Below are positions 25,298 through 64,000 of a DNA stretch of 64,000 nt, piece by piece. The notes beneath the pieces were generated by a model, which was not told where the DNA came from, did no database searches, and saw only the letters and a list, made by a program, of their open reading frames with translations. Numbering within the stretch: the first letter of the stretch is position 1; the number at the start of each line of letters is the position of its first letter. The translations under genes were made by a program, and so were the position numbers. Origin of the DNA: Candidatus Poribacteria bacterium (GTDB taxonomy: Bacteria > Poribacteria > WGA-4E > JAJDTR01); NCBI GenBank assembly GCA_965222225.1, contig CBDCTK010000002.1, positions 3,168,001 through 3,232,000 of the forward strand, in the 5' to 3' direction.

Positions 25298-25334
25298 TGA
25301 TAGCGTTGCTCAAATCTTGCCAATGCGGGGCAAG

Positions 25335-25405
25335 GAGATCTCTATGGGAGCTCTATCGCAGTCATTATCCATTCCTTTGATCGGTCGTTATTCACTCCCT
25401 TGATC
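25335..25405 (+). repeat. Modular CTATCGC/TTATYC/TTGATC array, copy A
   Basis: GAGATCT CTATGGGAGCT CTATCGCAGTCA TTATCCATTCCT TTGATCGGTCG TTATTCACTCCC TTGATC, between the arms GCGGGGCAAG and CTCGCCTAC. Confidence 0.85.
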
Positions 25406-25636
25406 CTCGCCTACGGGTTTGGTGTACGGGGTAATTTGGCATTGGTCATTTCATAACAGTAAATTGAAAGACCTCATACGCAATATTATTCAAGCGACAT
25501 GGTATAGCCTGTGATTCTGCCTCATGTTTGTCACCAATTCAAACTACAGCGCAAGTCCGAATCTGGCAATTCCCCCAGCGGTCAAGCAATACGTTAATCG
25601 ACTGTTTGATGCTCGTTGGGGGGAAAGTTCTAAAGC

Positions 25637-25817
25637 TATAGTCATGTGCATTTATATTTACATATATGAGCGTTGATTGACTCGATTTAGCTCACAATCT
25701 CCCGGTTTGCAACATTTCCCATTGAGCGGGTCGGGCTGGAAGCCCGACCTACGGGAATGAGTGAGAATTTGGGTATGTTAATAAACACATGTGTAATTCT
25801 TAGCCGCAATGACTATA
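25637..25817. mobile_element. Possible MITE with degenerate terminal inverted repeats and an internal REP
   Basis: Ends TATAGTCAT...ATGACTATA with further partial IR (TTACA.AT.TG); internal palindrome at 25728-25752. Confidence 0.45.
25728..25752. repeat. GTAG/CTAC-type REP palindrome
   Basis: GGTCGGGCT-GGA-AGCCCGACC-TAC. Confidence 0.7.
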
Positions 25818-25954
25818 ATCGGCGATTTGACACTCGCCAACCTGCCCCGGTGCCAAACACAACTCCGTTTTGGAAGGGGAGGTTGTAATCGGCAAAAGGA
25901 AGAAGGGAATCGTCTTTCGCTTTCGTTTCGGAGCATCATCCTTGCAGTTACCAC

Positions 25955-27217
25955 CTATTTTCTTTCCTTAATTGCCCCGTAGATGACGGACCTGAGCGAT
26001 TTGCCGAGTTGCTGCATCGGAAGCTGTTGGCTTAGGACGACCACGGCTAGAGCGTCGCGAGGCGAGATCCAGAACTCGGTGCCGGCTCCACCGTACCACT
26101 CGTACTCCCCGACAGGCGAGGGATTCGTGTTGATTCTCCTGACGCGAACCGCGAAACCCAAACCAAAGCCTCGACCCTCCGGCTTACGGTTAATTGGCAA
26201 CAACCCTACCGGAAGTTGATTGCGCGTCATCATCTCTACAGTTTCCGCTTTCAGCAGCCGCACCCCATCAAGAAACCCATCGCCTGTTAGCATCAAGCAG
26301 AAACGCATGAAATCAGTCGCCGTCGAGACCAGTCCTCCTCCACCAGATAGAAACTTCGGCTGAGTCATAAAACTCGTCTCGGAGATGTTGCCGGATCCGC
26401 CTTCCGCAGCATCAATAGTCTCCAAGCCACCATTCGGTGCTGGTCCATACATACGGGCAAACCTGTCGATTTTCTCAGGTGGTACGTAGAAACCGGTATC
26501 CTTCATGTGCAATGGCTGGAATATCCTTTCGGCTAGGAACTTGTCGAAAGCCAGACCGGAAATGACCTCTATCAGTCGACCTAGGACATCCGCCGCAATG
26601 CTGTAGTGCCACCGCGTACCCGGCTGGTATAGCAAGGGAACAGTACCGAGTCTCTCGACCACCTCCTGTAAGTTGCACTCGCTCAAGCGCTGCAGACCCG
26701 CTTCCCGATAGAGCACTTCAATAGGAAACTTCTCACCCAGGTATCGGCTAGAGCCGGGCAGCCCGGAAGTGTGACGAAACAAGTCGAAGACGGACATGTC
26801 TCGTATCGGGTCAACCAGTACGAGCTCTTCGGCGTCAGGGTCGACCGCCACCCTTAATCCACCCAACTCCGGAATGTAATCCGAAACCGGGGCATGGAGA
26901 CTTAGCGATCCCTCCTCATAGAGCATCATCGCCGCCACCGCAGCGACCGGCTTGGTCATGGAATAGATGCGGAAAATCGTGTCCGTCGGCATCGGCGCCC
27001 GCACCTCGCGATGCCTCATGCCGTATGCTTCAAAGTGGACAACCCTGCCGCGCCGTGCCACAATCGCGACTGCCCCCGCGATTTTCTCCTCATCAATAAA
27101 TTTCTGTATGGTTGAGGAGATACGTTGGAGGTTTTCCGCCGACAGCCCCACCGACTCCGGATCAGCCGTCCAGCCGGCGCTGAATGTATGCTCCTCGTTC
27201 TGTGCTTGCACTACCAC
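25955..27217 (-). CDS. Serine hydrolase, beta-lactamase family
   Basis: FRIYSMTK (SxxK), HTSGL, PGTRWHYS, SGGGGLVST. Confidence 0.92.
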   Translation of the reverse strand: MVVQAQNEEHTFSAGWTADPESVGLSAENLQRISSTIQKFIDEEKIAGAVAIVARRGRVVHFEAYGMRHREVRAPMPTDTIFRIYSMTKPVAAVAAMMLYEEGSLSLHAPVSDYIPELGGLRVAVDPDAEELVLVDPIRDMSVFDLFRHTSGLPGSSRYLGEKFPIEVLYREAGLQRLSECNLQEVVERLGTVPLLYQPGTRWHYSIAADVLGRLIEVISGLAFDKFLAERIFQPLHMKDTGFYVPPEKIDRFARMYGPAPNGGLETIDAAEGGSGNISETSFMTQPKFLSGGGGLVSTATDFMRFCLMLTGDGFLDGVRLLKAETVEMMTRNQLPVGLLPINRKPEGRGFGLGFAVRVRRINTNPSPVGEYEWYGGAGTEFWISPRDALAVVVLSQQLPMQQLGKSLRSVIYGAIKERK

Positions 27218-27266
27218 TCAAACCTCCCTGCCGTAGTCATTCTCATTTATATTAGTACATGTTTAG

Positions 27267-27293
27267 GTAGGTGCGGTTTCCGACCTCACCTAC
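27267..27293. repeat. REP palindrome
   Basis: GTAGGTGCGG-TTTCCGA-CCTCACCTAC. Confidence 0.65.
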
Positions 27294-27485
27294 GGGATGG
27301 GATAAATAGCGATTCGGTTAGGATACCGAATTTACCGCAGTGTATAGACAATTGCTGGTTTTACTATAATAAACCCTTGGGTAGTTGGCCGGACGAGAAT
27401 AAAGCCGAGCCGAATGAAACAGTATGCGAAAATCTCGGAGCAATCGCCCGTTATAGATTGACGGTCATCAACGATATCGTGAAGA

Positions 27486-28748: not shown

Positions 28749-28948
28749 TTCACTGTCCTATCGTTGTTCCAAATATCTCCCAATTCTAAGCTCGACTGTG
28801 TACGTTTGAGCGAGGCAACAAACGGTGTCAATCAAGCGCTGAGGAAATGTAGAGAAGATTTTAACCATCTAGTCTTTTGGGTTGACCATTGAAAAAGTCT
28901 CCAGCGGTTCCTGATACTATGCAACCTGTCCGGATTGCTTCCCCTGTG

Positions 28949-29016
28949 GTAGGCGCTGTTTCTAACTGCGCCTCGCGGGGGGTTGTGTCATCGGTGCGGT
29001 TAGAAACCGCACCTAC
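28949..29016. repeat. Inverted REP pair (BIME-like)
   Basis: GTAGGCGCTGTTTCTAACTGCGCC ... GGTGCGGTTAGAAACCGCACCTAC. Confidence 0.7.
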
Positions 29017-29057
29017 CGTTAGTACCTATTTAGGTTTGTGACATCGGCGGAGGTGAA

Positions 29058-29166
29058 GAGATTTCTATCGCAGCCACTTTGGGATTTACTATCGGGACTA
29101 GCTATCGCAGTCATTGTCCATTCCCTTGATCCATCGCTATCCACTCAGTTGATCGTTCGTTTGATC
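29058..29166 (+). repeat. Modular array, copy B
   Basis: GAGATTT CTATCGCAGCCA CTTTGGGATTTA CTATCGGGACTAG CTATCGCAGTCA TTGTCCATTCCC TTGATCCATCG CTATCCACTCAG TTGATCGTTCGT TTGATC, then CCCGCCTAC. Confidence 0.85.
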
Positions 29167-29239
29167 CCCGCCTACGGGTTTGGTGCTTCACGGCTTTCCG
29201 TTCAACCCAACGTTGTACGTTTGTACAAAGTCAAGCTAA

Positions 29240-29491
29240 GAGCCTGTCTGAAAAATAGGCCGCAAAAAAGTTTTTGGATACCTGGGCAAGAGTTTTTATC
29301 ACAATTTTGTTGCCGGCTCCTATACACCTGTCGCCCCGCTGGGGCTTTAGTATGTGGGGTTTCGCAGTTACTATACACCTTCCGCCCCTCCGGGGCTAAC
29401 TACGACTGGTGCACGGAGTTTATCTTGATTCAATGATAAAGATAAGTTTTAGAATGATGGCACTACTCGAAACGCGTTTTCAAACAGGTTC
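29240..29491. mobile_element. MITE with IS5-family-like TIRs and TAA target duplication
   Basis: TAA-GAGCCTGTCTGAAAA ... TTTTCAAACAGGTTC-TAA; no transposase inside. Confidence 0.75.
29320..29397 (+). repeat. Two tandem 27-bp hairpin repeats inside the MITE
   Basis: CTATACACCTGTCGCCCCGCTGGGGCT (29320) and CTATACACCTTCCGCCCCTCCGGGGCT (29371). Confidence 0.75.
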
Positions 29492-29522
29492 TAAGGCGTT
29501 CACATGTCCAATCCGATTATGC

Positions 29523-30878
29523 TCATCGTTGCGCCAAAAACGTCTCCAACTTGGCTCGCAGTTCCGCCAAGTCATCGGCGTAAGCCTCGTCATCAATCAG
29601 ATTGCGGTTTTCACGAGGATCGACCGCCAAATCAAACATTTGGTCGGGCCAACCTTTTCCCTCAAAACGGAAGTATTTCAGAAAGTCACGCTTGACCATG
29701 GCTGAAGGCCCGTTAAATGGGTGGTATAACTCGCTATAGACCTCATTTCGCCATCCATCGGTGCGTCCCTCCATCAGCGGCACAAGCGAGCGCCCGTCCA
29801 ACCCATGGGGTATAGGCACGTTCGCGATTTCGCAGAGGGTAGGGAATAGGTCAACCAGCGAAACGTTATGTTGAACGATGTCACAGCCTCGGGGAAATCG
29901 TTGCGGCCACGATATGGAGAACGGCACCCGTACCGATGCCTCGAAATACTGCTGCTTTTCCCAAAGCCCCTTCTGCCCCAGCATCTCCCCGTGATCGCTG
30001 AGAAAAACCACCACAAAATTGTCAAGAACGCTTAACTCCTCAAGTTTGGAGATAACCCGTGTGTACTGCATATCCACCCACTCAATCATGCCGTAGTAGG
30101 CGGCTGTTGCCCGGTGCGCTTCGCGGTAGGTGACATCCTCCCCTATCTTCACTTTGAAGAACTCATGGCAGTCGAAGTTGGAGGGCAAATCCTCGACATA
30201 CGGTTCCACGCGACGCATATAGTAGTTAAACAGATCTTCGGGGCACTGGTAGGGATAGTGCGGACAATTGAGGCTCACCGCGAGTAACAACGGGTGGTCG
30301 CCGGGCCTATCGTGAACTTCGTCAACAAAATACTCGTCGAGAATCATCAAAGCCCCTTTGGCGGAGTACCGGTCGTGCTGCATCCAGGACCCTTTTCCGA
30401 CACGGGCGTTGGTAATCTCTTTGGCAGCAGACCATTTGCCAGTCCCTTCCTCAGGAAATGTCGCGGCGGTATGAACCGGGTCATCTACGGGTTCGTAGCC
30501 GTTTGGTCCCCGGATGTCGCGACCGATGCGCTCGTGCCAGCCGTGCATCTGATCGGGACCGACAAAGTGCATCTTTCCGGCGCTTACCGTTCTGTAGCCG
30601 TAGCGTGAGAGGTGTCCGGGAAGGGTGAGCACGTCGCTTGGCAATGGGCAATCGAAGCCGGTGCAACCGCTGTTTCGTGGATAGAGCCCCGTCAGAAAAC
30701 TCTGCCGTGCCGGCACGCACACCGGCGCTGGCGTATACGCGTTCCGAAAATATGCGCCTTGGTTAACGAGACGGTCAAGGGTCGGCGTGCGAATATGCGG
30801 ATTCCCTTCGACAGACATCAGATCGGGACGGTGTTCATCGTCAATCAGCAGCAGGATGTGCGGTTTCTTCTCAGGCAT
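29523..30878 (-). CDS. Sulfatase (choline-sulfatase-like)
   Basis: CVPARQSFLTG (CxPxR), GKMH, SDHGEMLG. Confidence 0.92.
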   Translation of the reverse strand: MPEKKPHILLLIDDEHRPDLMSVEGNPHIRTPTLDRLVNQGAYFRNAYTPAPVCVPARQSFLTGLYPRNSGCTGFDCPLPSDVLTLPGHLSRYGYRTVSAGKMHFVGPDQMHGWHERIGRDIRGPNGYEPVDDPVHTAATFPEEGTGKWSAAKEITNARVGKGSWMQHDRYSAKGALMILDEYFVDEVHDRPGDHPLLLAVSLNCPHYPYQCPEDLFNYYMRRVEPYVEDLPSNFDCHEFFKVKIGEDVTYREAHRATAAYYGMIEWVDMQYTRVISKLEELSVLDNFVVVFLSDHGEMLGQKGLWEKQQYFEASVRVPFSISWPQRFPRGCDIVQHNVSLVDLFPTLCEIANVPIPHGLDGRSLVPLMEGRTDGWRNEVYSELYHPFNGPSAMVKRDFLKYFRFEGKGWPDQMFDLAVDPRENRNLIDDEAYADDLAELRAKLETFLAQR

Positions 30879-31013: not shown

Positions 31014-31068
31014 GGGATCTCTATCGCCTTCGCTATTCACTCAGTTGATCCTATTCGGTCGCTTGATC
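31014..31068 (+). repeat. Modular array, copy C
   Basis: GGGATCT CTATCGCCTTCG CTATTCACTCAG TTGATC CTATTCGGTCGC TTGATC, then CTCCTAC. Confidence 0.85.
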
Positions 31069-31098
31069 CTCCTACAGAGTCCCAGTAGCAATTCGGTG

Positions 31099-33964: not shown

Positions 33965-34170
33965 GGGATTTCTATGCAAGCACTATCGGGATTTACTATG
34001 GGAGTTCTATCGCACTCCTTATTCGGTCGTTTGATCCTTCCTTAACTGTCAGTTGATCGCTCGATATTCATTCGTTTAGTGCTCAGACTTAGAGGCTGGT
34101 GGGCAGTGCCCACCCTACAATATTCTGTCGGTTAATCCTTATTCTGTCGGTTGATCCTTATTCTGTCGTT
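33965..34170 (+). repeat. Modular array, copy D, followed by a REP and a 19-bp tandem tract of the same family
   Basis: GGGATTT CTATGCAAGCA CTATCGGGATTTA CTATGGGAGTT CTATCGCACTCC TTATTCGGTCGT TTGATC...; REP at 34098-34120; about 2.6 copies of TTATTCTGTCGGTTRATCC at 34121-34170. Confidence 0.85.
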
Positions 34171-34876
34171 AGATTCTTCAGTGGTTTGGGAGATTTAAAT
34201 CGCAGTTAATGCGTTACGACTCGAAAATTGCGTCGAAGCATGTCATAGCTTGGCTTCGTAGATGCTTTTGGCGTCGTGATTGAGTGTGCGAAATACTGCG
34301 ATAAACTGCGAATATGTCTTCGATCGCGTTCACCGCGGTACTGCGACGATTGCCCAAAACAGCGGCAGGCGCTCCGACTGGATGCCACCTAGATTCGCTC
34401 ATGCGCCGATAGTTTCGGCGCCGAAAAGGGACGAAACCCGGCGAACTGGAATAGCGGTTTAGACTCAGATTCGACATTTGGCTCAGTGGTCTTTTCTATT
34501 CTCACGTCACAAAGCGCGCACATAGGTGAACGAGTTCGACACTCGGCGGCATGCGTTGGAGGCGCGTACACTCTTTCAAAGACCGCGGGCAGCATTTGAC
34601 AGCGCCGTTTTAGAGGAAGCGCGAGTGAACGGAATCCAATTAAAACTGATGGGATTCTCGTCCCTGCAGCTCAACCCCAGAAGAAACAAGTGCACAACTA
34701 TCACTAGCCGGCATTGACGATTCGGCATCATTATACTATACCTCTGTATAGTTATCAATCTAAAACAATGGAGGAGTTGCCAGAGGGAAGTGATGGCTCA
34801 AGCTGCACATGAAATTGCGTTAATAGCTCAATCTATCCTTCGGAGACCGATTATTTTAAATACACATGTCGATATG

Positions 34877-35776
34877 TCATTCTAAATGACGTGTCTTGAT
34901 GCCGCCCCACATCAGAGGCAACTTCTCCAACGGACTGACGGCGAGGCTCATTATTCCCCTTATTTCTTCATCATTCATCGGTCTATTCCAGAAACGCACT
35001 TCATCATATCTCGCAGGAAAGAACCCGGTGCCCGGATTGCCTCCATCACCGACCGCATGAATCCCCATCCATATCTTTTTTCTGGCTTTATCGCTATCCG
35101 GCTTGTCGTTAAGCGCTCTTGAGAAATCTCCCGCCCGTCCGATGAACTCCCCATCAATATAGGCTCTAAGTTCTTTGGCGCCTTCATCGCGCACCCCTGC
35201 GATATGGTGCCATTCCCCGTCGTTCAATTTCGGCTTATCCGTTATGACGCCGGGGGTGCCGGCACCCGAAGCTACAAACACATTCACTGCCGCAAATCGA
35301 AACTTGTCGTCCCCGTCAATATCCGAAAAGAAGAACATCGACCAGTGCCCTTTATTGTGTCCGTCAGTCCCATGTCCTCCGAAAATGAGATGCCCGTGGA
35401 AGCCGCTAACAACAGCCTCCGGCACCTTGGGAGCTTTAGCCGTGGTCATCAGCCACAGTTCGGCAGTGAACGAGCCACGCTCCGCCTCAATCAGCTCTGG
35501 TGTTAAATTGATTTCCACATACCCGGTTTCGCCGTCCAGTTGTAAAGCCCTCCCCCGTTTCCCCTGAAGGATTTTCGTCCCGCCGATAATCTTGCCGCCT
35601 CCCGTTTTGCCCGTGAGATCTCTCGCTATCCCGCCCGTGCTGTCGTCAAAGGGCAGATAAAGCAACAAGCTATCATCAAAAGCGTTGATAGGCAGAACGA
35701 TGGCTATGAAAAGTACGCCGGATGCCATTGCGATGAATAGGTTCATCCTGTTTCTCGACATTTCGTTCTCCCACAA
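34877..35776 (-). CDS. Secreted LamG/concanavalin-like domain protein (Poribacteria type)
   Basis: Signal peptide, LYLPFD, DGEWHHIAGV, DEVRFWN, C-terminal AVSPLEKLPLMWGGIK. Confidence 0.88.
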   Translation of the reverse strand: MWENEMSRNRMNLFIAMASGVLFIAIVLPINAFDDSLLLYLPFDDSTGGIARDLTGKTGGGKIIGGTKILQGKRGRALQLDGETGYVEINLTPELIEAERGSFTAELWLMTTAKAPKVPEAVVSGFHGHLIFGGHGTDGHNKGHWSMFFFSDIDGDDKFRFAAVNVFVASGAGTPGVITDKPKLNDGEWHHIAGVRDEGAKELRAYIDGEFIGRAGDFSRALNDKPDSDKARKKIWMGIHAVGDGGNPGTGFFPARYDEVRFWNRPMNDEEIRGIMSLAVSPLEKLPLMWGGIKTRHLE

Positions 35777-35908
35777 CTTAGAACAACTTTGATTAACCCA
35801 AGCCAGTTTGACATACTGTCCATAGGGGGTAAATGCCTTGGGCTTCGACGGTTTTGCCCCCCAAGTAACGAACTTTTTTGGTTGTGCTAACTGCGTTTCA
35901 GATAGGTT

Positions 35909-36727
35909 TTAAACAGACTCCTCCCGATCAAAGAGAGCCAATTGATCCTCATTCAGAGTATCGGCACGAAGGTGAATCAAATGCAAGGCTTGCTCGGCAG
36001 TAGATTCCTTCTCGTCGCCGTCTTGGTCTACAAGGCACTTCACAATTATACCTTTGCCCCTCACATGTACAAGCAATACCATCTGAACGGTGAGAAGAAC
36101 AATGCGCGTGCAAGTATCAATGAGTTTCAAATGACGATGCTCGGAAGATTGCAAGTTCGTTTTGCCTTCCCCCCAATCGTCTGGACGAGGTAGATATGCG
36201 CTACCATGCGCGAGGTCGTTGCGGATATCTTTAACGACGTTCAAACCAAGCCCGTTCAAATCGTCGGAGTCGTTTAGTTTGAACGCGTCACTACGCACTT
36301 CGTAAGTAGCATCCTCCTCTATGAATTTACGTAGGGAATATAAAGTGTCTTTGTAACCAGCAATGGGACGGCTTGGGCTATAGTTTTGCTTCAAGAACTT
36401 GATTGTTTTATCCACGACGCCGTATCGCTCTATACCTAAAAAAACCTTAGCTACAGTCTCAAAACTACCCCACACGAAATTAAAAATTATGAGTCTTGTG
36501 GTGAGATTTGACAGCAACTCACTGCGCTTATCTTCGTAAGCCATAGCTGTTCCACAATACGCTAGGGTGTCATCGTGCTTTGCTGTTGTCACCTTGACGC
36601 TTTCAACGCCAGCGGCGATGTCTAGCCAAGCCATTGCGTTCAAAAACGGGACCTGATCCCATTGGCTTAGAAACTCCTTTAATTCAAAACAGTGTTCTTG
36701 TAAATCAATAAGTTGATTGCGGCGCAT
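35909..36727 (-). CDS. Hypothetical protein with HEPN-type RxxxxH motif
   Basis: FNFVWGSFE and IRNDLAHG; lies at the edge of the defence island. Confidence 0.6.
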   Translation of the reverse strand: MRRNQLIDLQEHCFELKEFLSQWDQVPFLNAMAWLDIAAGVESVKVTTAKHDDTLAYCGTAMAYEDKRSELLSNLTTRLIIFNFVWGSFETVAKVFLGIERYGVVDKTIKFLKQNYSPSRPIAGYKDTLYSLRKFIEEDATYEVRSDAFKLNDSDDLNGLGLNVVKDIRNDLAHGSAYLPRPDDWGEGKTNLQSSEHRHLKLIDTCTRIVLLTVQMVLLVHVRGKGIIVKCLVDQDGDEKESTAEQALHLIHLRADTLNEDQLALFDREESV

Positions 36728-37319
36728 TTCTTCTCCTTCCTCCTTATCAATAATGAAGTCTTAGTTAGGTTGGCCTTGTAGCGGCCCGTCTGAATTTTTG
36801 AAATTAGTCTTTGCGAACAGTCATCTTCGGCTAAATGCTTTGAGACTCCCGTGAATCTGCCAATTGAACCACGAAAAAACACCTTGCCATCTACGTTTCA
36901 AAGCCAATCTGAAGTCTGTAAATCACTTGAATGCGTGAATTGCCATTGCGACAATAATCAGTGGACTTGCAATGAAATGACAAAAAATCTCTCAGGCAGT
37001 TGGAATCCTAAGAGTTGCTCACCATGGCACTATACTCCGTGCATAAGGTCACCGGAACCCCATCTGCCTACTCAATACCTCAATTCATTTCTGTTGATCC
37101 GCTGTCGTAATTGTGCTACACTAAACATCTAATAATACGATAATAAAGAGCATTCTTCAATAATAAAAAACAGACATGTAATTATCCACTGGGACGTCAT
37201 GTTAGAAAAGCTAGTGGAATTGAATCTCCAGCTAGTGTTCTCAGTCATGAACGTAACATCACTAGAGATATGGGACGATTGACATATTCTGATGTTTTGT
37301 TGGTTGCAGGTTGTGAGTG

Positions 37320-38246: not shown

Positions 38247-38249
38247 ATA

Positions 38250-41768: not shown

Positions 41769-41800
41769 AATGGAGCGCACCAAAAGGAGAATCAAAAAAG

Positions 41801-42610: not shown

Positions 42611-42614
42611 TGCG

Positions 42615-43115
42615 ATGAATGCAATCGAACTCCACGATTTTGACGAACAAGTTGATATGATGAAAGCCCACGCATGGGATCGCGTTTTGATGTGGCCTCA
42701 ATTGTGGTCTGAGTTCAAAACGCCGCCAAACCATGTTTGGAACTGGGGTTCTGTACCTTTTGAAAAAAGTTACTCAGATGCTGTCCCCGGTGACCGGCAT
42801 GGTGTATATACTTTCGCGATTGCTCCCGGCGTTGCTCAGCATCCTTTGCTTTACCTCGTGACTTATGTGGGTAAAGCGGATCAAATGACATTGCAATCAC
42901 GCTTCCTTAGTTATTTTTACGAACGATCCAGTATTAAAAGACCACAGATTGGTCGGTTTCTTCGGCAATACGATGGGTTCATAATGTTTAGTTTTTGTCC
43001 CATCGCGGATGTTTCGACAATTCATGAAATCTAAAATCAGCTAATTAACGCATTGATCCCACCTTTGTGTAGACGATACCCGGATAAGGTTTCGGCACCG
43101 CGACGAGCCTTTTAG
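42615..43115 (+). pseudogene. GIY-YIG-like nuclease with internal TAA at 43032-43034
   Basis: GVY...YVGKA...L.SRF..Y; after the stop the same frame reads NQLINALIPPLC...AF to TAG 43113-43115. Confidence 0.7.
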
Positions 43116-43146
43116 CGATCGCGAGAGGCCGAGACGAAAGGTCAAG

Positions 43147-53179: not shown

Positions 53180-54321
53180 AATCAGTTTACGCAGACAACA
53201 ACGCCACAACCCCTGTTGCACCAGAAGTGATAGAGGCGATAATTCCATACTTCAACAACAAGTTTTACAACCCGAGCGCGATCAGTGGACGCGCATACGG
53301 TATTGATTCAGCAATCGCCAAAGCCCGTCGGAGCGTGGCGGAATCTCTAGGTGCGTCAGACGCGAAGGAAATTGTCTTTACTTCCTGTGCAACCGAAAGC
53401 AACAACTGGACGATTTTCGGGACAACTCGGGCAAATCCTGAACGCCGGCATATCATCACATCTCAAGTAGAACATCCCTCTATACTAGAAGCGTGCAAGT
53501 CTCTATGTAAGAACGGCTATGACGTTACATTTCTCAGTGTAGATTACGATGGCAATTTGAGTACGGATGAGCTACTGGACTCCATTCGTTCTGATACCCT
53601 TTTGGTCTCGTTAATGGCAGCAAACAATGAGACAGGCGTAATATTTCCGGTTGACCTCTTATCGGCTGCTGTCAAGGAACGGGATACGAACATCATATTT
53701 CACACGGATGCCACACAGTACGTCGGAAAACTGTCCGTTAATCTCAACCGAGAGTTTGAACACATCGATCTGATGTCGTTCTCCGCCCACAAATTTCATG
53801 GACCGAAGGGAATAGGCGGGCTTTTCATTCGGAAGGGGACACCGCTGCCTCCGCTCCTGTATGGAGGAAATCAAGAGAATGGTCGTCGGAGTGGCACTGA
53901 GAATGTGCCGGGAATAATTGGCTTGGCGGAAGCGTGCAAGTTAGCTGACCGCAACATCGAAAATCTGCAACGGGTCGGCGCTTTACGCGATCAATTGGAA
54001 AGAGAACTGCTTGACCTATTCCCGACTTCCTTAATTAACGGTAAGAAGGCGAACCGCTTGCCCAATACACTTAGTATCGCTTTCGAAAATAGCGATAGTG
54101 AAACACTCCTACATCAGCTTTCCCAGAGTGGGGTGTACGCCGCAAACGGTTCGGCGTGTTCCACAGGTTCGTTGGATTATTCTCACGTCCTTTCGGCGAT
54201 GCAAGTGCCGTATGATTATATTGCCGGCAGTATACGATTTAGTTTCAGTTATCTAAATTGTCCGGAGGACGTGAAAACAATCGCAGAAAAAATGAAACAG
54301 ATTTGTGGTACAGCCTTTTGA
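53176..54321 (+). CDS. sspA: Cysteine desulfurase (IscS/SspA/DndA-like)
   Basis: DNNATT, HTDATQ, SAHKFHGPKG.G, GSAC; overlaps the sspH stop (ATGA). Confidence 0.88.
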   Translation: MKSVYADNNATTPVAPEVIEAIIPYFNNKFYNPSAISGRAYGIDSAIAKARRSVAESLGASDAKEIVFTSCATESNNWTIFGTTRANPERRHIITSQVEHPSILEACKSLCKNGYDVTFLSVDYDGNLSTDELLDSIRSDTLLVSLMAANNETGVIFPVDLLSAAVKERDTNIIFHTDATQYVGKLSVNLNREFEHIDLMSFSAHKFHGPKGIGGLFIRKGTPLPPLLYGGNQENGRRSGTENVPGIIGLAEACKLADRNIENLQRVGALRDQLERELLDLFPTSLINGKKANRLPNTLSIAFENSDSETLLHQLSQSGVYAANGSACSTGSLDYSHVLSAMQVPYDYIAGSIRFSFSYLNCPEDVKTIAEKMKQICGTAF

Positions 54322-54364
54322 CATCTGGGCGGCGACGAAATTAAACTCACCACTCCATACCTAC

Positions 54365-55237
54365 CTAATATTCCGCCACGCGCCGCGCTTTTATCTCTCC
54401 CCAAGTCAGAGATAGTTTATCCAACGGATCCACCGCGAGCGTCATGTGTCGCTTAGCGTCGTCTTGAGTCATGGCTATATTCCAGAAGCGAACCTCGTCA
54501 ACTGTGGCGGGAAAGAACCCGGTGCCGGTCTGTTCGGCGTGGTTCGGAATATGAATCCCAATCCAGATGTGCTTGCGTCCGCCGTCAGCCTTGTTAAGAC
54601 TTCGGTTGCGCTCGTCCTCCACGCCAACCAAACGTCCGTTGATAAAAAGCCGAATCTCTTTGGCATCTTCGTCGCGAACCGCGGCGATGTGATGCCACTC
54701 CCCGTCGTTCAGGTGAAATGTGTTGTCCGCGACAACACCCTGCGGGCCGCCACTTGTATGGGAATTCACGTTAATGTTGTAGAAAGAGAGGTTGTTGCCG
54801 TTTTGCAGGAACATAGACCAATGACCGTGAAAGTGTTCCTCAGGCCCATATCCCCCGAAAACCAGATATCCGCGTAGTCGTTTGACCGGCTGCTCGACCG
54901 CAATTTCCGGGCCCACGGCTTTAGTTTTGAACCAAAGTTCCGCAGTGAAGGAGTTTCTCTCCGCCTCAATCATCTCGGGAGTGAGTTCAATCTGCAGGTA
55001 CCCGCTTTCACCATCCAGTTCCAGCGCTTTGCCGCGAAGACCCGGAACAATCTTTGCGCCCCCGTTGATGACCCCACCCTTCGTTTTTCCGGTCAAATCC
55101 CGCGCGACCTTCCCGTCGCCACTGTCGAAAGAAAGATAAAGCAGCAAGTTCTCATTCACGGCTTTAACAGACGATACCGAGGCTACCAAGCATATGCAGG
55201 CGCCCATTGCGATGGCGAGGTTGTTTGTTACTCTCAT
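54365..55237 (-). CDS. Secreted LamG domain protein, paralog of 34877-35776
   Basis: Shared segments DLTGKT.GG, LTPE.IEAER.SFTAELW, GTGFFPA..DEVRFWN; C-terminal AVDPLDKLSLTWGEIK. Confidence 0.88.
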   Translation of the reverse strand: MRVTNNLAIAMGACICLVASVSSVKAVNENLLLYLSFDSGDGKVARDLTGKTKGGVINGGAKIVPGLRGKALELDGESGYLQIELTPEMIEAERNSFTAELWFKTKAVGPEIAVEQPVKRLRGYLVFGGYGPEEHFHGHWSMFLQNGNNLSFYNINVNSHTSGGPQGVVADNTFHLNDGEWHHIAAVRDEDAKEIRLFINGRLVGVEDERNRSLNKADGGRKHIWIGIHIPNHAEQTGTGFFPATVDEVRFWNIAMTQDDAKRHMTLAVDPLDKLSLTWGEIKARRVAEY

Positions 55238-55380
55238 GAATTCCTCCCCGGTCGGTCAATCCTCACGGTCCGGTTTCTGATTCTGTAGGTTCCCGCCGTC
55301 AAGTTAACCAATATCCTAGCGATATCTACTTAACGTGTCAAGGAAGATGTTCAAACCCAAGGCAATAACGACGTTTACCT

Positions 55381-57294
55381 CTACATCGTGCCGCCGAAGA
55401 ATATGAACCGATGCATAATATCGCCGATTATCGTCCAGATGCTCCCCACGACGTATTCCCCCAAAATGAGTCCCAAGAATAGAGGTCGCGCGCGGCGGTA
55501 CTGTCCAACCCCGCCGTACCTTATCAGTAACCACTTCATCGCGAAGCCGATAAACATGGAGAACCAGAAGTGGTTGATGTCTAGGCTGTTCGCTATCGCA
55601 TACCCACCCGGGTGCAGCCGCCACCAGAGGAACCGCTGGCGCATGGCAATCAGAAAGACTGAAACGCCAAAACCGATGCCTATGGTCTGTATACCTGAAA
55701 TCTCGATTTTTTTGGAGGGATAGGCGATCCAGTCTGCCACCCGCGTGTAGATAACATCGGCGAACCGTTGCAGGGAGCTGCCGCCCGAAGTGTAAGCCAC
55801 ATGCAGATAAACCCAGAACAGACTGAGTGTGCCGACAACCAACGCGGCTGTCATAGCCAGAAATATCCGCTTGTTGCCTACCCCGGCACGGTCAAGCAGC
55901 GCCAATCCCTCCATCTGATGCGGCTGCGGATGCCCCCGGTACGTGAAGTTGAAGAACCCCAGCATCGACATCACCGTTAAATTTCGATACCCTATACGGC
56001 GCGCCCCAAGAACATCGGGCAGAATCTGATCCGGTCCAGTGAAATGGAAGTCGTGCATGGGGACCCCCATCTCGGCTCGAAATCGGGTTAATCCAAGGGA
56101 CACCAGATAGTAGAGCAGAAAGAAAGTGAGGCTCAACCAGATCGCCATTCCCGCCTTCCACAGGAACAGGGTCATAAATCCAATCCCCAGAACTATGGTC
56201 AATACCGCTTTACGATAATTCGCTTGCTCCTCGGAATCAATTCCGGATGCACGCCTGAACATAACATTGAAGTATTTTCTGTTCACCCAGATTGCAATCA
56301 CCGCCATTCCGACCAATGCGCCGAACGACTGCTGATTGAGCGAAACCAGATACCCGGTATACGCAACACGCCGCGCGCCCAGCATTTCCGCGACAATCCG
56401 TTGCACCTTGCTCAGAAAGAAAAAGAATGCGCAAGAGAACGACATATCTAACGGCATGAAGAATCCCAAGCCAATGACGGGAAAGGCGAATCCGAGTTGT
56501 AGACTGCCGATGGCGCTCCACGGCTTGGTCGTGAAAAAATTGGACAATTCGTTTTCGTACGGATGGATACGTAGCCTCGGAACAGCAGGGTAGAGCGAAG
56601 CCAAACCGTTAATCAGCGCTATTCCGCCAGAGATGCCGAAGCCAATCCATAATAACCGACTCTTCAAAATGGGAGTTCTGGGATTCGTTATCTCAAGCGG
56701 CAACTGAATAATCGGATAGGATAGCCTCTCATTTTCCACCCACGGACGTCTGAACAACACGGCGATAGCGCCCATCACCAAGACCAACATCACGACAAAT
56801 GCCGACCAGCACAAGGCGGGGATGAGCCAGGGTTCAATGTGTTGCTTGATGTATAGCGTGGATTCTCCCCGATAGTAGGTTTGTAGCACGCCTTTATCGC
56901 TCACCGATAACCACGATGGAATATATCGGGCGAACAGGTTCTGCCAGTCGTTCTCCCGTGAGGCAACTCGAAAGGGATATTCCATGACCGGCACCAGCGT
57001 TTGCATCATCTGAAACGATTGTATCGCCGAGGTCAGGCTTAACATAATGTAAATGGTTATCAATTCCCCGTGCGTTAGAGACAGCCGCGGCGCAAACTTC
57101 GCCATTGGACGGTTAAACAGGGCTAACACAAACACGATGAACACAACATTAAAGAATGGGGAGATGATAGTGGGAATTGACTGGTACTGATAGGGTTGGC
57201 GGGAGATGACTAACCAATAACAGTTAATCGGGATAAGGATCATCCCGATTAAGATGATCCGAAGTGAAATTCCTGGCGGCTGGCTTTGTTTCAA
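55381..57294 (-). CDS. Polytopic membrane protein (DUF6785/DUF6784-like)
   Basis: Many TM helices; WVENERLSYPI.QLP, WW.LHP.GY, K.L..RYGG...Y....P.FLGL..GE. Confidence 0.75.
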   Translation of the reverse strand: MKQSQPPGISLRIILIGMILIPINCYWLVISRQPYQYQSIPTIISPFFNVVFIVFVLALFNRPMAKFAPRLSLTHGELITIYIMLSLTSAIQSFQMMQTLVPVMEYPFRVASRENDWQNLFARYIPSWLSVSDKGVLQTYYRGESTLYIKQHIEPWLIPALCWSAFVVMLVLVMGAIAVLFRRPWVENERLSYPIIQLPLEITNPRTPILKSRLLWIGFGISGGIALINGLASLYPAVPRLRIHPYENELSNFFTTKPWSAIGSLQLGFAFPVIGLGFFMPLDMSFSCAFFFFLSKVQRIVAEMLGARRVAYTGYLVSLNQQSFGALVGMAVIAIWVNRKYFNVMFRRASGIDSEEQANYRKAVLTIVLGIGFMTLFLWKAGMAIWLSLTFFLLYYLVSLGLTRFRAEMGVPMHDFHFTGPDQILPDVLGARRIGYRNLTVMSMLGFFNFTYRGHPQPHQMEGLALLDRAGVGNKRIFLAMTAALVVGTLSLFWVYLHVAYTSGGSSLQRFADVIYTRVADWIAYPSKKIEISGIQTIGIGFGVSVFLIAMRQRFLWWRLHPGGYAIANSLDINHFWFSMFIGFAMKWLLIRYGGVGQYRRARPLFLGLILGEYVVGSIWTIIGDIMHRFIFFGGTM

Positions 57295-57347
57295 GACATT
57301 CCTTTTACGGTTTATGGCACGAATTCTCGATTATCAGATCGAAGTTC

Positions 57348-57370
57348 TTGTAGGGTGGGCACTGCCCACC
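57348..57370. repeat. REP palindrome, exact reverse complement of 34098-34120
   Basis: TTGTAGGGTGGGCACTGCCCACC. Confidence 0.75.
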
Positions 57371-57457
57371 ATTCCCGGTTGAGTTCATACTAATACCATT
57401 TCTATATATTTTCAGTGCATAAATTGCGTCAATCAAGTCGTTCCAAGGCAGGGCAAG

Positions 57458-57507
57458 GGGATCTCTATCGCGGTCGTTATCCACTCCCTTGATCTATTCG
57501 CTCAGTT
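57458..57507 (+). repeat. Modular array, copy E
   Basis: GGGATCT CTATCGCGGTCG TTATCCACTCCC TTGATC TATTCGCTCAG. Confidence 0.85.
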
Positions 57508-57565
57508 TGCGCATCACGAGCACAATCTAACAGATTATGCTACAAAGGCGGCAACTTGGGTTATC

Positions 57566-57665
57566 TAACAAGTGAACGCCAATGTTCATTTTTTGTGCAA
57601 GAGGGGCGTTGGCAGATCTCGCAACAGTGCCTGTGTCTTACAAATCTGGTAGAGCACCAGTGCTG
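57566..57665 (+). repeat. ~100-bp direct repeat, copy 1
   Basis: TAACAAGTGAACGCCAATGTTCA...TACAAATCTGGTAGAGCACCAGTGCTG; matches 63774-63872. Confidence 0.85.
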
Positions 57666-57737: not shown

Positions 57738-57801
57738 CTATCGCCTTCGCTATGGGATCTTCTATCGCGTTCGTTATTCACTCACTTGATCTCAGTTGAT
57801 C
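57738..57801 (+). repeat. Modular array, copy F
   Basis: CTATCGCCTTCG CTATGGGATCTT CTATCGCGTTCG TTATTCACTCAC TTGATCTCAG TTGATC. Confidence 0.85.
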
Positions 57802-57857
57802 GGTTTTGGGGCAGATGGTTCTACTTTTTTAGGCTAATATAACAAAAATTTTTTAGA

Positions 57858-57886
57858 TTGATAACTTAACGTATGTGTGGTATATT
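57858..57886 (+). promoter_or_regulatory. Putative sigma70 promoter
   Basis: TTGATA-N17-TATATT with extended TG; near-duplicate of 58592-58620. Confidence 0.55.
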
Positions 57887-58384: not shown

Positions 58385-58500
58385 TAAAAAGAATAAACAT
58401 CTTTCCATAATGTCCCGGAACCCGACGGCATTACAGACAACCTCGTTGATCGCGGCTTGGACTTGGCAATACAAGCCAATCAGTCGACCAGATAGGAAGG

Positions 58501-58540
58501 GATCAACTGAACGAATAGTGAAGGCGATAGCAAATCATAG
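58501..58540 (-). repeat. Modular array, copy J (only minus-strand copy seen)
   Basis: Reverse complement reads CTATGATTTG CTATCGCCTTCA CTATTCGTTCAG TTGATC. Confidence 0.8.
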
Positions 58541-58591
58541 TCTCGATGAAAGTTACTATGAGAGTTTTATATATTTTTGATAATTTTTAGA

Positions 58592-58620
58592 TTGACAACT
58601 TAACATATATATACTATACT
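58592..58620 (+). promoter_or_regulatory. Near-consensus sigma70 promoter
   Basis: TTGACA-N17-TATACT. Confidence 0.65.
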
Positions 58621-58957
58621 TATGTATAGTATATTTTGGTAGTAGTTGATACTTCCGAAGTGATGGTTCCAAATTCTGTGTTTTTCATTTAGAGCTTGTT
58701 TCAAATGTACAAAGTCCAGCCAAGATGATGTCGACGAAATGGAGTCCAGCGGTTAAGTACCAGCAAAGTATGCGGCACAGTGCGAAAAGCAAGGCGGCAT
58801 TCTGCTTCAGTTTCAAGTAGATTCCTTTAGCATGTTTCATTTCAGAGCAATTTGCCGAATACCTTTCATGCTGTTTTATCCGCTACCCTATAAAGGGTGG
58901 CAATTTCAACCACGTAGCCTACATTGTAGGCTACGACTACCATAAGGAGGCAGCACA

Positions 58958-59758: not shown

Positions 59759-59764
59759 AGAGCA

Positions 59765-61560: not shown

Positions 61561-62297
61561 CCGGGTTGCCATAGTTCACCCGGATAGGTCTTGACTGCAA
61601 TTGGCCCCATTTCATCAATGCAAATTGTTCGCGTGTCCGGTGGAGGCGCGATGTACGCCGAAATTATGGCCCCCTTTTTTCCACGAACTGTTCGTCCTGT
61701 TTTTCCGCATTATGAAACCAACTCTGCTGACGTTTCCAATTCAGCCCTTCTTCAGTTATCCAGCTCCATATTGTTGAATCGGAGAGATGAATCCCTTCTC
61801 TTTCTTTGAAGCTAATTTGCAGACGTTCTAGCGTCCACAACTCAAATGGATAATCCAGACTCGACGGTCTTTGCATCGCTAAATCAATCAGTTTACTGCG
61901 AACCTCTATCGAATGCGTTTTCGGTGCGCCGCTCCGGGGTTTATCAGCAAGTCCTTCAATGCCTTCGTCGTTGAAGGGATTTTCTATCGCGCTCCTTATT
62001 CAGTCGCTTGATCGCTTAATCCATTGCGCTCCGGAAACCCCCGTTTGAATCCAGCTTGTAGGGCGGCTTTGGAACTCGTTAGTTGGTTGTCATCAATCAT
62101 ATTGACGATGAGTTGAGCTCTTTGGACGAGCTGGTGAGATTGGGTACGTGAGTTAGCTAGAGTCCTAAGTTGGTGTTCTTCTGTTTCACTAACCGTACGA
62201 ACATAATGAACTCGTTTTCCCATTATGAATTCTCCTTTCCATTTCGGTTGAATGGGCAGGAGAATTATATCATAATTACTTGCCGAGAGAACCACTA
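61548..62297 (-). mobile_element. IS630-family element remnant (3'-truncated, interrupted)
   Basis: Reconstructed RAQLI..W.KRFN.EG.EGL.DKPRSG.P..WTL..L, A6G slippery site at 61674-61680, then CIDEMGP; TA-starting end near 62297. Confidence 0.85.
61977..62012 (+). repeat. Modular array, copy G: 36-bp insertion in the IS630 transposase
   Basis: GGATTTT CTATCGCGCTCC TTATTCAGTCGC TTGAT; removing it restores WIKR-FNDEG. Confidence 0.88.
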
Positions 62298-62379
62298 AGT
62301 ATCCAGCCGAAAATTAGAAGGTCACGTGCCATGATGTTACTCCAACTTAAAAATGTCCGATAACAAACCGTATCGGACG

Positions 62380-63470
62380 TTATTGTTTTATAGCCCCCCA
62401 CGTTGTAGCGGCTTTGGCGTAGGGGTTGACGACGGGAATCGAGGCGCGGAAGATGCCCCCGATGCTGTGTGGGAGGTAGAATCCTTGTTCTTCGTCCAGG
62501 GCGTAGAAAGTACGGCTAGCGGTGGCGTAAAGCCGGTCTTGATGGGATATCAGCTGACCGACACCGAACTCCGGCAGGCCGGCGGGAAACCAGGTTTCGT
62601 AGCGGTCGTCAAACACCCAGATTCCCTTTTTCCGAAGCCCGGCGAAGATACGGCCGCGATGGACGGCGAGGGCCGAGATCCTCGGCTCGTGCGGCAGTCC
62701 GGCGCTAAGATCGTCCCACGCGAGTTCGCCTTCGTCCCAGCGCCCAAAGGCGTATGCGGCGCCGACGTATAAGCGATCGTCATGCGCCAGCCAATCGCCC
62801 GGCGCTCCGTAATCGGTGAGGGCACGGCGGTGGCCGCCCCAAATTGGCATCAGTTCCCATGTGTCGCCCAGGTGGGGGTACGGTATAGGTCGGGGAAACC
62901 GACAAAGGCGGAGGCCCAGAGGTAGCCGTCGAACTCGGTCATCGTATGGCTACGAAAAGCGATGTGAGTTGACACATGCGGGCCGACGTGCACCCACTCC
63001 TCGTACGGGTAGTGCCAGGTCTCGCCTCGATCGCGGGATATGTGTGTGCCGGAGTGGTAGCCCACGGCGACGACCATACGGGATTCCGTGACGAGTATTT
63101 GGTTAATATAGGGGTGGTAGATGGGGCCGTCTATGCGATCCTCCTTATCAAGCCTGGTCAGACCGGCGTTTTTTGGAGCCCATGTCTCGCCGCAGTCATC
63201 GGATCGAAACATCCCGAATTCGGTGCCGGTATAGGCGTACACGGCATCGTCGCCGATTCCAAGGCAGTACACGCGGTGCGTCATGCCGGTCGGGCGCCAG
63301 GTGTCGCCGTCATCGTCGGAGATGTAGAGTCCGGTCCGGTCGGCGGCGTAGAGGCGTTCGCCGTCGCTTTCAAGCAGCGCCGCATCAATGTTGGGCAGGA
63401 ACTCCCAGTCGGCGCGGGCGCAGGCGGTCATGAGCAGGGCGATGGCGAGAATTGGGTATAGTGTTTTCAT
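62380..63470 (-). pseudogene. Secreted BNR/Asp-box beta-propeller protein, frameshift near 62875
   Basis: S.D.G.TW repeats; one added base gives YRTPDLGDTWELMPIWG joining both ORFs; ends AATTWGAIKQ. Confidence 0.78.
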
Positions 63471-63773
63471 TTTATCCTTTCGGCGCGGATATTCGCATCC
63501 GATTCGTTCGCTAACATAGTCATCGTTACTACGAAAATGAAAGCGGTTCGCATTAAACGTCGAGTCCACATCATCGGAACGTCTCCCTTGGAGCTGATGG
63601 TTATCGGATTGATTGCGTTATTGGAGTGTATGCAAGTTATGCGCCACTATCTATCACGCGCCAAGGCTGTCCTAGTCCATAAGTTACCCTGAATTGGCAC
63701 GATCCCACGAATTGCATCAAACTCGCCCCCCGATGTGTCATGGAAACTCAATGGCGTTTCGTGATTTCGTGTA

Positions 63774-63872
63774 TAACAAGTGAACGACAATGTTCATATT
63801 ATGTACAAGGGGGCGTTGGCAGTTCTCGCTACAGTGCCTGGGTGCTACAAATCTGGTAGAGCACCAGTGCTG
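63774..63872 (+). repeat. ~100-bp direct repeat, copy 2
   Basis: Matches 57566-57665 with scattered substitutions. Confidence 0.85.
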
Positions 63873-63902
63873 GCTTAACTAGCGGTAGGTTCGGCTGAAA
63901 AT

Positions 63903-64000
63903 GGATCTCTATGGGATTTCTATCAGGATTTGCTATCGCATTCGCTGTTCGCTCATTTGATCGCCACGGGCGCTCTTAAAGGCTGGTGTGATCTCTATCG
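63903..64000 (+). repeat. Modular arrays, copy H (63903-63962) and start of copy I (63990-64000, cut by the window end)
   Basis: GGATCT CTATGGGATTT CTATCAGGATTTG CTATCGCATTCG CTGTTCGCTCAT TTGATC; then GATCTCTATCG. Confidence 0.82.

Follow-up and report, generated by a model that had tools for sequence, protein, structure and literature searches.

Hypervariable mini-arrays of a Poribacteria genome are probably stacks of one very small mobile hairpin element

What kind of element leaves short, ordered and highly variable arrays scattered through a bacterial genome? The question is raised by a stretch of 64,000 nucleotides (nt) from a Candidatus Poribacteria bacterium (assembly GCA_965222225.1, contig CBDCTK010000002.1, positions 3,168,001 to 3,232,000; hereafter the window), which is part of a 5.7-Mb assembly and carries a dispersed family of such mini-arrays. 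An original prediction, made from the letters of the window, held that the arrays had been written into the genome by repeated, error-prone copying of a short template, as by a telomerase-like or reverse-transcriptase-like enzyme. We find that their variation follows a base-paired stem and that a single non-coding hairpin element, very small and mobile, has probably nested and stacked in tandem to form the mini-arrays.

Within the window the core motif CTATCGCNNTC occurs 10 times against 0.43 expected (maximum 4 among 100 shuffles), and the main contig holds 1077 cores (485 + 592). All ten copies originally reported are present at their positions, with lengths that we measure as 30 to about 109 bp in the window instead of the 36 to about 120 bp first given; window positions 1-25300 and 34200-57400 hold no member of the family. 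Column statistics, anchored on this 11-mer alone, describe a unit of 36-37 nt, GGGATYT-CTATCGC-n1n2-TC-n3n4-TATYC-n5n6-TC-n7n8-TTGA(TC), which on the reverse strand reads GATCAA-nn-GA-nn-GRATA-nn-GA-nn-GCGATAG-ARATCCC. As had been predicted, variation is focused at the 'nn' positions, to which the Y of the loop must be added, the remaining columns having the same major letter in 78-93% of the 1077 cores. The first n is indeed rarely T (19/1077), and the second, from which A had been said to be missing, has A rarely rather than never (52/1077). The order from the head through CTATCGC and TATYC to TTGATC is preserved as described.

A multi-seed definition yields about 826 arrays on the main contig (median 37 nt, 90th percentile 65, longest 245), with one full module in 610 of them, two in 120, three or more in 17 and none in 79; the sub-unit period within arrays is 11-12 nt. 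These arrays are not an assembly artifact, a possibility that the original prediction had singled out for checking. They are recovered in contigs from four sequencing runs of four studies, one of them an RNA library in which DNA carry-over is possible, and in a source-like run the array at 31014 is covered without differences. Run contigs end at the arrays and pile up there, with a summed word depth about 5-1000x that of flanking bins, as is expected of a repeat.

The arrays had been said to have no palindromic stem, and this part of the prediction does not hold. When 45 random copies were printed, the dinucleotide in CGC-nn-TC was seen to be the reverse complement of that in TC-nn-TTGATC, with the inner nn likewise matched around TATYC. 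In the numbering given above, n1n2 is complementary to n7n8 and n3n4 to n5n6, giving four covarying base pairs. Among 733 modules of the genome itself, Watson-Crick pairs occupy the four positions in 533, 684, 691 and 620 modules, and Watson-Crick plus G.T pairs in 538, 692, 698 and 630, against means of 263, 365, 354 and 499 when partners are shuffled; no shuffle attains the observed pairing.

The same result was obtained with an independent set of 57 distinct modules, namely all those that a strict pattern picked out in the loci numbered from L105 upwards, most of them belonging to other genomes. Here, 97.0% of cells pair against 77.9% after shuffling (0/500 shuffles as high), and double-change cells number 97 against 18.9, while slid controls reach 16-47%. 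Free variation is limited to the four inner pairs, where it is compensatory. Among 1143 loosely defined modules we count 494 distinct, self-complementary stem types, the commonest with 52 copies, in which outer and inner pairs combine freely. The variation is therefore not the copying error that had been proposed.

Departures from pairing tell the two strands apart. On the strand on which the motif was first read (the motif strand), 304 cells hold A.C (169+20+21+94) against 30 that hold G.T. Since A.C on this strand is a G.T wobble on the reverse strand, the reverse strand is the one under structural constraint: wobble is tolerated there only, and it is the reverse strand that folds. The hairpin that it can form has helices of 3, 2 and 2 base pairs separated by an AA x GC loop and a tandem GA x GA loop, the latter being the TC x TC mismatch of the motif strand, with a GRATA pentaloop at the tip. 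Tandem GA x GA pairs stabilize hairpins. With RNA parameters, the covarying hairpin is predicted in 4/9 arrays of the window on the folding strand versus 1/9 on the opposite strand. A Y-GA-R context, considered as support for tandem G.A pairs, is present in just 374 and 396 of the 733 modules and was dropped.

Empty and filled sites within the genome bear on how the hairpin came to be where it is. The genome carries classical repetitive extragenic palindromes (REPs), hairpins of the GTAG type. Joining the flanks of arrays and searching the genome with the product returned exact empty-site analogues for 64/781 arrays, all at or beside the apex of one of several REP families. REP-A (GGTG[CG]GCA…CACCCTAC) has 132 empty and 30 unit-bearing copies; REP-C (GCGGGGCA…CCCGCCTAC) has 14 empty and 21 unit-bearing copies, with many different modules at one and the same junction; and REP-E (GGGAATAACG-AT-CGTTATTCCC) has 6 empty and 3 unit-bearing copies. 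In hosts with a GATC apex, palindromes such as …AACGATCGTT…, the unit interrupts the apex as GA^TC, a placement ambiguous by 2 nt. On the right, the junction invariably reads TTGAT then C, and units stand just 5' of TC, often in GA^TC or TTGA^TC. The filled REP-A rows that were printed (n=22) comprise 7 identical inserts and 7 further ones differing by 1-3 letters, indicating that this composite has itself been amplified, which accounts for much of the commonest module type.

At the filled and empty junctions compared there is no target duplication, in agreement with what had been noted. The reported lack of terminal inverted repeats is right in part: the GGGAT at the start of the unit can pair with ATCCC if the 3' flank provides CC, and this terminal pairing (GGGATC/GATCCC) spans at most 5-6 nt, solely at such flanks. 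CTAC lies within 25 nt downstream of 304/826 arrays against 103 in the upstream control, and belongs to the host REPs. Complementarity between the flanks of arrays is not above that of a shuffled-partner control, which shares the same REP families.

Units also occupy one another. In 10 of 21 candidate split units the loop holds a complete 36-nt unit (in one case a longer block), as TAT[unit]TC, and the outer arms remain complementary at all four positions; since one composite accounts, in near-copies, for eight of the ten, the independent events are fewer. Other units stand directly after the TTGA of a resident unit. Neighboring modules in an array share 2.48 of 8 variable letters against 3.07 for random pairs, and 2/104 pairs are identical; being no more alike than random pairs, they show that the arrays are not plain tandem duplications. 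A further nested architecture, CGCnn^TC, was seen in 11 cases, where arm complementarity (6/11, shuffle mean 5.9) is at chance level because one type dominates. The arrays probably consist of copies of a tiny mobile hairpin element, nested in one another or stacked in tandem, together with partial units.

Comparison with related genomes supports the view that the arrays are secondary additions, as 'written into the genome' had implied, with filled and empty sites between species as well as within the genome. The closest relative (G005) has genes 82-94% identical to those of the genome under study (G000) and is syntenic for window positions 1438-35770. Over 473 kb, 30 G000 arrays had both anchors; 12 were aligned (contig C2, 3.15-3.45 Mb, counterpart <400 nt) and 18 were left out as probably repeat-anchored or too long. 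Retained orthologous units differ by 0-2 letters, and in array 455 the difference is a compensatory change of an A-T to a G-C pair. Insertions or deletions between the two genomes consist of one whole 37-nt unit, 70-72-nt blocks after TTGA or inside a resident loop, and head-only pieces of 12 and 28 nt. In three cases a different self-complementary unit occupies the same spot between conserved flanks. Since retained units are stable and whole units are gained, lost or replaced, there is no rewriting in place.

Individual loci follow the same pattern. The array at 31014 differs from its G005 ortholog by 1 letter in the shared body, the latter having one additional whole 37-nt unit bounded by an 8-nt repeat. 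Among nine congeners, the 31014 spacer has an array at the same place, with the same right flank and different unit content, in 5, a unit in another context in 1, and none in the retrieved interval in 3. A composite of the 29058 type has a G005 copy (array 444) whose outer unit is uninterrupted. The region of the 33965 array finds no match in the intergenic sequence of G005 with which it was aligned, and the half units at 34121, which directly follow an ordinary REP (GGTGGGCAGTGCCCACCCTAC, within 34096-34120), stand where G005 has fewer repeats. A REP beside a RAYT gene is empty in G002, G009 and G004, whereas in G000, G001 and G005 it is filled, with units that are nearly the same.

The element is confined to few lineages. 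Exact copies of a 29-nt pattern number 330-824 in each of nine genomes of the same genus (g1) and 115-139 in four genomes of a single genus that belongs to a different family (g4); elsewhere in the order one genome holds 2 and 26 others none. Across 176 genomes of the phylum the pattern is abundant in 10/10 of g1 and 4/4 of g4, has 1-14 matches in 6 others and none in 156. Allowing up to 3 mismatches for divergent variants gave 0 matches in G030, G014 and G013 and 1 in G018, and among 2.9 million viral contigs there are 0 matches to the 29-nt pattern. In G066, from a genus otherwise without the element, all 21 matches at up to 3 mismatches lie on contigs C72, C83, C91 and C116; mis-binning or a transferred region is possible. 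G146 likewise has contigs with units on them.

On the main contig, 738/826 arrays lie entirely outside open reading frames (ORFs) and 59 mostly inside one, a crude set of long ORFs, to which 79.6% of the contig belongs, serving as reference. Array orientation follows GC skew, not transcription. Where the flanking genes are co-directional, the folding strand coincides with the gene strand in 275 cases and is opposite to it in 237, whereas the motif strand is the G-rich strand in 558/826 arrays and in 400/565 where |skew| > 0.015. For comparison, 59% of ORFs follow the skew, as do 72/92 copies of the ordinary REP-A family.

Two other readings of the arrays were discarded. The reverse strand of some arrays reads as a D/N/R-rich peptide, but the frames are broken and the arrays lie largely outside ORFs. 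DnaA boxes or iterons, suggested by TTATCCAC-like letters and the period of about 11 bp, were dropped on account of the intra-strand covariation and the copy number.

We therefore favor, as the likely explanation, a very small mobile hairpin. Spread of the unit would take place as DNA, probably in folded single-stranded form at the replication fork, and an enzyme acting in trans or template switching would move it. The stem variants would then represent an old replicating population in which selection acts on shape and fixed letters only. Single-strand (HUH) transposition is the nearest established mechanism, with template switching as a serious rival; passages of PMC5027513 and PMC3333891 describe HUH transposition as a hairpin-dependent, duplication-free and replication-linked route of insertion. 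A transposase of the Y1/HUH type would be the most obvious class of mover, and none of the five such loci in the genome tracks the element.

Several observations on fold, junctions, strand and mover weigh against the mobile hairpin. Folded with DNA parameters, single units have minimum free energies of -1.6 to -3.3 kcal/mol (z -0.90 to +1.06), no better than shuffles, so that non-canonical pairs or a protein would be required for the hairpin. No movement was observed, the sequencing runs being represented by contigs, and because of the 8-nt repeat that bounds it the 37-nt difference between G000 and G005 could equally be an insertion or a deletion. The left junction has no fixed sequence, and 1-3 host letters are missing at the REP-A, REP-C and RAYT-flank REP junctions. 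Among 557 head-started units 345 are complete, and 129 are truncated with a new head directly next, after CTAT (55), CTATC (15), CGCnn (28), one letter further (7), nnTAT (15) or elsewhere (9); a clean cut-and-paste enzyme does not predict such units. The patchy skew profile of the assembly makes the G-rich strand only presumably the leading strand. If it is, the folding strand lies on the leading-strand template, the opposite of what the relevant passages of PMC5027513 report for IS200/IS605.

To these must be added the outcome of the search for a mover. The genome has five Y1 (IS200-like) loci, and candidate movers were profiled over 40 relatives, in which arrays are present in g1 9/9 and g4 4/4. 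None has this distribution, neither the L001-type RAYT (g1 9/9, g4 2/4, g6 7/7, g3 5/10) nor the other Y1 types, L005 (g1 8/9, g4 2/4, g6 4/7), L002 (g1 3/9, g4 0/4), L003 (g1 6/9, g4 2/4, g6 6/7) and L004 (g1 2/9, g4 1/4), nor homologs of the RT-like (reverse-transcriptase-like) ORF (g1 5/9, g4 1/4, g6 1/7), nor the MutH-family ORF (g1 2/9, g4 0/4, g3 6/10). The expectation that an RT, Y1 or RAYT enzyme would match the arrays in distribution is thus disappointed for the candidates profiled.

Two of the five Y1 loci are flanked by units on both sides in G000, which suggested that the unit might be the cognate REP of a RAYT. We rejected this reading because in other species the flanks that are conserved belong to other REPs, the units having been inserted later. 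L001-type RAYT genes are flanked by a GCCCC-NNN-GGGGC-type REP in 12/12 loci, with units there only as insertions, in 3 species. L005-type loci are flanked by GTAG hairpins with a GATC apex, and a unit lies within 400 bp in 0/10 of the loci examined (14 returned).

Two observations on candidate enzymes stand apart. At L003 (G000:C2:3087437-3090769), 8.5 kb from the intact L001 RAYT, the Y1 frame is interrupted by one TAG stop, and congeners hold intact homologs. Two clear D12-class adenine methyltransferases are also encoded in the genome, as is an ORF of the MutH/Sau3AI family with 211 aa (G000:C2:5174667-5175590, 2637302-2637994, 4142679-4142900); they deserve attention given how rich in GATC the unit and its landing sites are.

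The strongest alternative to a mobile hairpin moved by an enzyme, in our judgment unlikely as things stand, dispenses with a dedicated enzyme altogether. Replication template switching (copy choice) would copy units and partial units between loci: a nascent strand would stall at the hairpin tip, jump to another copy, copy from GGGATYT towards TTGA, and return or restart, making the hairpin 'selfish' by provoking the very stalling and switching that copies it. The 129 truncations at a few discrete points, each followed by a new unit start, are what such a process should leave, and so are arrays that read as 3'-truncated units, a full unit and 5'-truncated units, although 345 of the 557 head-started units are complete. 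Repeated insertion, just 5' of TC or behind TAT, is compatible with the polar grammar of the arrays, as is copying from other copies that aborts and restarts. Insertion at an apex at the cost of 0-3 host letters, short homology at the junctions (GA, TTGA, TCGCTTGA), neighboring modules of different types, and orientation along the GC skew would all follow; however, a thousand copies of a precise 36-37-nt unit with conserved fixed letters suggest sequence-specific recognition, and template switching on 2-4 nt of homology is not known to reach such copy numbers. No enzyme with a matching distribution was found among the candidates profiled, as template switching would have it, yet the element is abundant in two genera only, though all genomes replicate and carry REP hairpins.

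A second possibility, which we hold to be quite improbable, concerns the origin of the stem variants. Stem diversity may be made, not merely inherited, if one arm were synthesized on the other, by fold-back or hairpin-templated synthesis or repair, so that every new copy acquired a new self-complementary stem, and a protein guarded the fixed TC/TC and loop letters (a 'hairpin writer'); a 36-nt enzyme-free hairpin that provokes template switching would be an equally unprecedented alternative. Hints in this direction are the 494 types among 1143 modules, the different modules at the same REP-C junction, the unrelated neighbors within arrays and the compensatory change between orthologs.

Less probable still, and in our estimate very unlikely, are sites with a host function under selection, such as an RNA motif of untranslated regions (GNRA-like pentaloop, tandem G.A) or phased sites (GATC-rich, period of about 11 bp) for a nucleoid or replication protein, with arrays tuning dosage. 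Wobble of the G.U type on one strand only, the RNA-parameter hairpin in 4/9 arrays on the folding strand versus 1/9 on the other, and the compensatory change in array 455 would suit an RNA, but orientation is tied to GC skew and not to flanking genes (275 vs 237), and the window has no Rfam match. Protein sites would agree with the 11-12-nt sub-unit period, and D12-class adenine methyltransferases are encoded, but covariation within one strand is unexpected for a protein-binding site. Most genera of the same order lack the element, its presence, number and type differ freely at orthologous spacers, and units lie inside other selfish repeats and inside each other, none of which suits a host function.

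As for the proposal with which this locus came to attention, an RT- or telomerase-like enzyme that writes arrays by copying a short RNA template repeatedly and with errors, its polar grammar survives, with restarts at fixed points that resemble synthesis starting at GGGATYT and sometimes aborting and with partial units that retain the end copied first if the folding strand is the template, but the enzyme link does not and we give it hardly any credence, since variation is compensatory and combinatorial with no scatter around one template, units retained at orthologous loci are stable, there was no sign of a master template, the 2.9 million viral contigs gave 0 matches, and the sole RT-like ORF of the genome is weak (RVT_1 26.8 bits against a Pfam cut-off of 29.6) and does not track the arrays.

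Among known systems, the mobile hairpin appears closest to REP/REPIN sequences and, above all, to the SDR elements of Nostocaceae. The latter, reportedly the subject of a paper by Elhai et al. (2008, Genome Res 18:1484), are said to measure 21-27 nt, whereas the unit described here has 36-37 nt and belongs to Poribacteria; the two are compared by description only. Both are dispersed, non-coding, hairpin-type sequences of tens of nucleotides, insertion-like and present in hundreds of copies in one lineage, with no known mover. The combinatorial covarying stem, the self-nesting and the skew-linked orientation are seen here and are not known as features of SDRs. Passages of PMC5861425 describe SDR5 as inserting into the GATC-containing palindrome HIP1, which resembles the placement of our unit in GATC-apex palindromes.

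REPs and REPINs, as parts of PMC3116915, PMC3333891 and PMC3733652 portray them, are likewise short, extragenic, hairpin-forming and high in copy number, and occur in mosaics with other repeats. As a short extragenic high-copy palindromic repeat, with a stem that is interrupted but covarying, the unit would pass for a REP, and it shows the same orientation bias (units 400/565, REP-A 72/92). Passages of PMC3733652 define REPs by an unpaired GTAG or CGTC tag at one end and note that REPs are regularly found inserted in other palindromes. The unit ends in GGGATYT and TTGA(TC) without such a tag of its own, and flanks no RAYT gene across genera. Its stem consists of 2-3-bp helices broken by fixed mismatches, unlike the GC-rich palindrome of a REP, and it is the guest inside REPs, stacked in direct orientation, where REPs are the hosts and inverted.

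IS200/IS605 elements, in the excerpts of PMC5027513 and PMC3597680 considered, share with the unit a lack of target duplication (for the unit, at the junctions compared), a folded strand, a replication strand bias and a short sequence favored at the insertion point. They differ in having two subterminal hairpins where the unit is one hairpin, which encodes no transposase and is linked to none; unit junctions are often imprecise, with a left flank that is not fixed and 1-3 letters lost at some sites, and the apparent folding strand is presumably on the other replication strand, if the passages of PMC5027513 are representative. Elements of this family insert 3' of a fixed tetra- or pentanucleotide and excise precisely, by means of a Y1 transposase. 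Insertion sequences that target REPs (IS1397, IS621 and others; Clement et al. 1999 and Tobes and Pareja 2006, as listed in PMC3116915) also land in REP hairpins. Integron attC sites (PMC5371416) offer only an analogy in how the unit may work, being single-stranded hairpins with a conserved shape and a few conserved letters, fixed or unpaired, a free stem and a replication-linked orientation. The unit has no cassettes or ORFs and shows no R'/R'' core sites, and its size and context differ. Elements of the IS1397/IS621 type are kilobase-sized, with their own transposase and target duplications, whereas the unit is a passenger of 36-37 nt.

The remaining classes fit less well. The unit has neither the terminal inverted repeats nor the target-site duplications of miniature inverted-repeat transposable elements, and the arrays lack the marks of RT-templated repeats, whether telomerase-like, from diversity-generating retroelements or from retrons. 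They are not CRISPR arrays or a curated RNA family: units are non-identical, there are no spacers, and an Rfam scan of the window at gathering thresholds returned 0 matches. A literature search, which did not extend to supplementary files, found no report linking Poribacteria with REP-type repeats.

If the unit is mobile, as filled and empty sites indicate, its 36-37 nt come close to the minimum size at which an element can spread through a genome. What such an element has to keep is unusually plain in it, a shape and about 20 fixed letters, and so is what can change, namely four base pairs that occur in nearly all of the combinations allowed. With about one array per 7 kb it remodels the intergenic spacers of an uncultured sponge-symbiont phylum, and its arrays break short-read assemblies at every copy. 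For anyone seeking a new single-strand DNA enzyme, or a way of copying that needs no enzyme, the unit is a clean target. The parallel with SDR5 and HIP1, GATC palindromes serving as landing sites in both, suggests that there may be a more general class of very small hairpin parasites of bacterial repeats.

The arrays of the window and the REP features next to them are listed below.

Table. Arrays, units and associated REP features of the window. The strand given is the motif strand; the folding strand is opposite.
Feature	Position	Strand	Description
REP arms enclosing the 25335 array	25325-25334, 25406-25414		GCGGGGCAAG (25325-25334), CTCGCCTAC (25406-25414)
Array	25335..25405	+	Duplicated head (GAGATCT-CTAT / GGGAGCT-CTATCGC) and two full modules, each with 4/4 complementary pairs
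Nested array	29058..29166	+	Outer unit split at its loop: 5' part 29058-29080, 3' part 29154-29166; then CCCGCCTAC
Inner block of the 29058 array	29081-29153		73 nt; head units and two modules
Array	31014..31068	+	One full unit and a 5'-truncated half unit; abuts CTCCTAC 31069-31075
Array	33965..34036	+	Three 3'-truncated head units, then one full unit; degenerate module-like sequence to ~34060
Half-unit array	34121..34175	+	Three tandem head-less half units of the type TATTC-TG-TC-GG-TT[AG]ATC
Empty GTAG-type REP hairpin	57350..57370	+	GTAGGGTGGGCACTGCCCACC; host-hairpin kind, of the REP family with 132 empty and 30 unit-bearing copies
Single unit	57458..57494	+	Complete, 37 nt, 4/4 pairs complementary; after GGCAGGGCAAG 57447-57457
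Array	57738..57801	+	Truncated unit (CTATCGCCTTCGCTAT), full unit, extra TCAGTTGATC tail
Single unit	58499..58540	-	Opposite orientation, folding strand +; covarying hairpin in RNA-parameter folding
Unit	61976..62021	+	One complete unit, short GCTTAATC tail
Array	63903..63962	+	Two truncated head units, then one full unit
Unit start	63990..64000	+	GATCTCTATCG, cut by the window end

The empty form of the REP around the 25335 array (…GCA-AGATGC-CCCGCCTAC) has 14 copies in the genome. The genes beside the arrays of the window are ordinary ones (SBP_bac_5, DUF6785, sulfatases, beta-lactamase-fold and PhyH).

Further repeats accompany some arrays. A repeat of the form AATACCATTTCT…GCGGGGCAAG-[units]-CCCGCCTACGGGTTTGGTG… lies at window positions 25269-25440, 57392-57520 and 57684, AATACCATTTCT occurring exactly three times in the window, and stands upstream of two unrelated minus-strand genes, SBP_bac_5 (23177-25297) and DUF6785 (55381-57294). 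Another repeat of about 100 bp (TAACAAGTGAACG…CTGGTAGAGCACCAGTGCTG), at 57540-57660 and 63774-63870, is in both places upstream of an array. Near-identical promoter-like stretches, TTTTTAGATTGA[TC]AACTTAAC…, at 57845-57885 and 58585-58625 adjoin arrays of opposite orientation.

Other differences from the closest relative were noted along the window. Positions 28767-29535 hold a 768-bp mosaic of repeats, with several REP hairpins, two REPs of the CACCTGTCGCCCC…GGGGC type and the nested array, where the syntenic place in G005 has 6 bp. The interval 35770-54365 (about 18.6 kb) has no syntenic G005 counterpart and no hairpin units, and contains large plus-strand ORFs such as 38250-41768 (1172 aa) and 47858-53179 (1773 aa). 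The DUF6785 region (55376-57298) is duplicated in G005, at two places about 3 kb apart with 88.5 and 88.7% identity.

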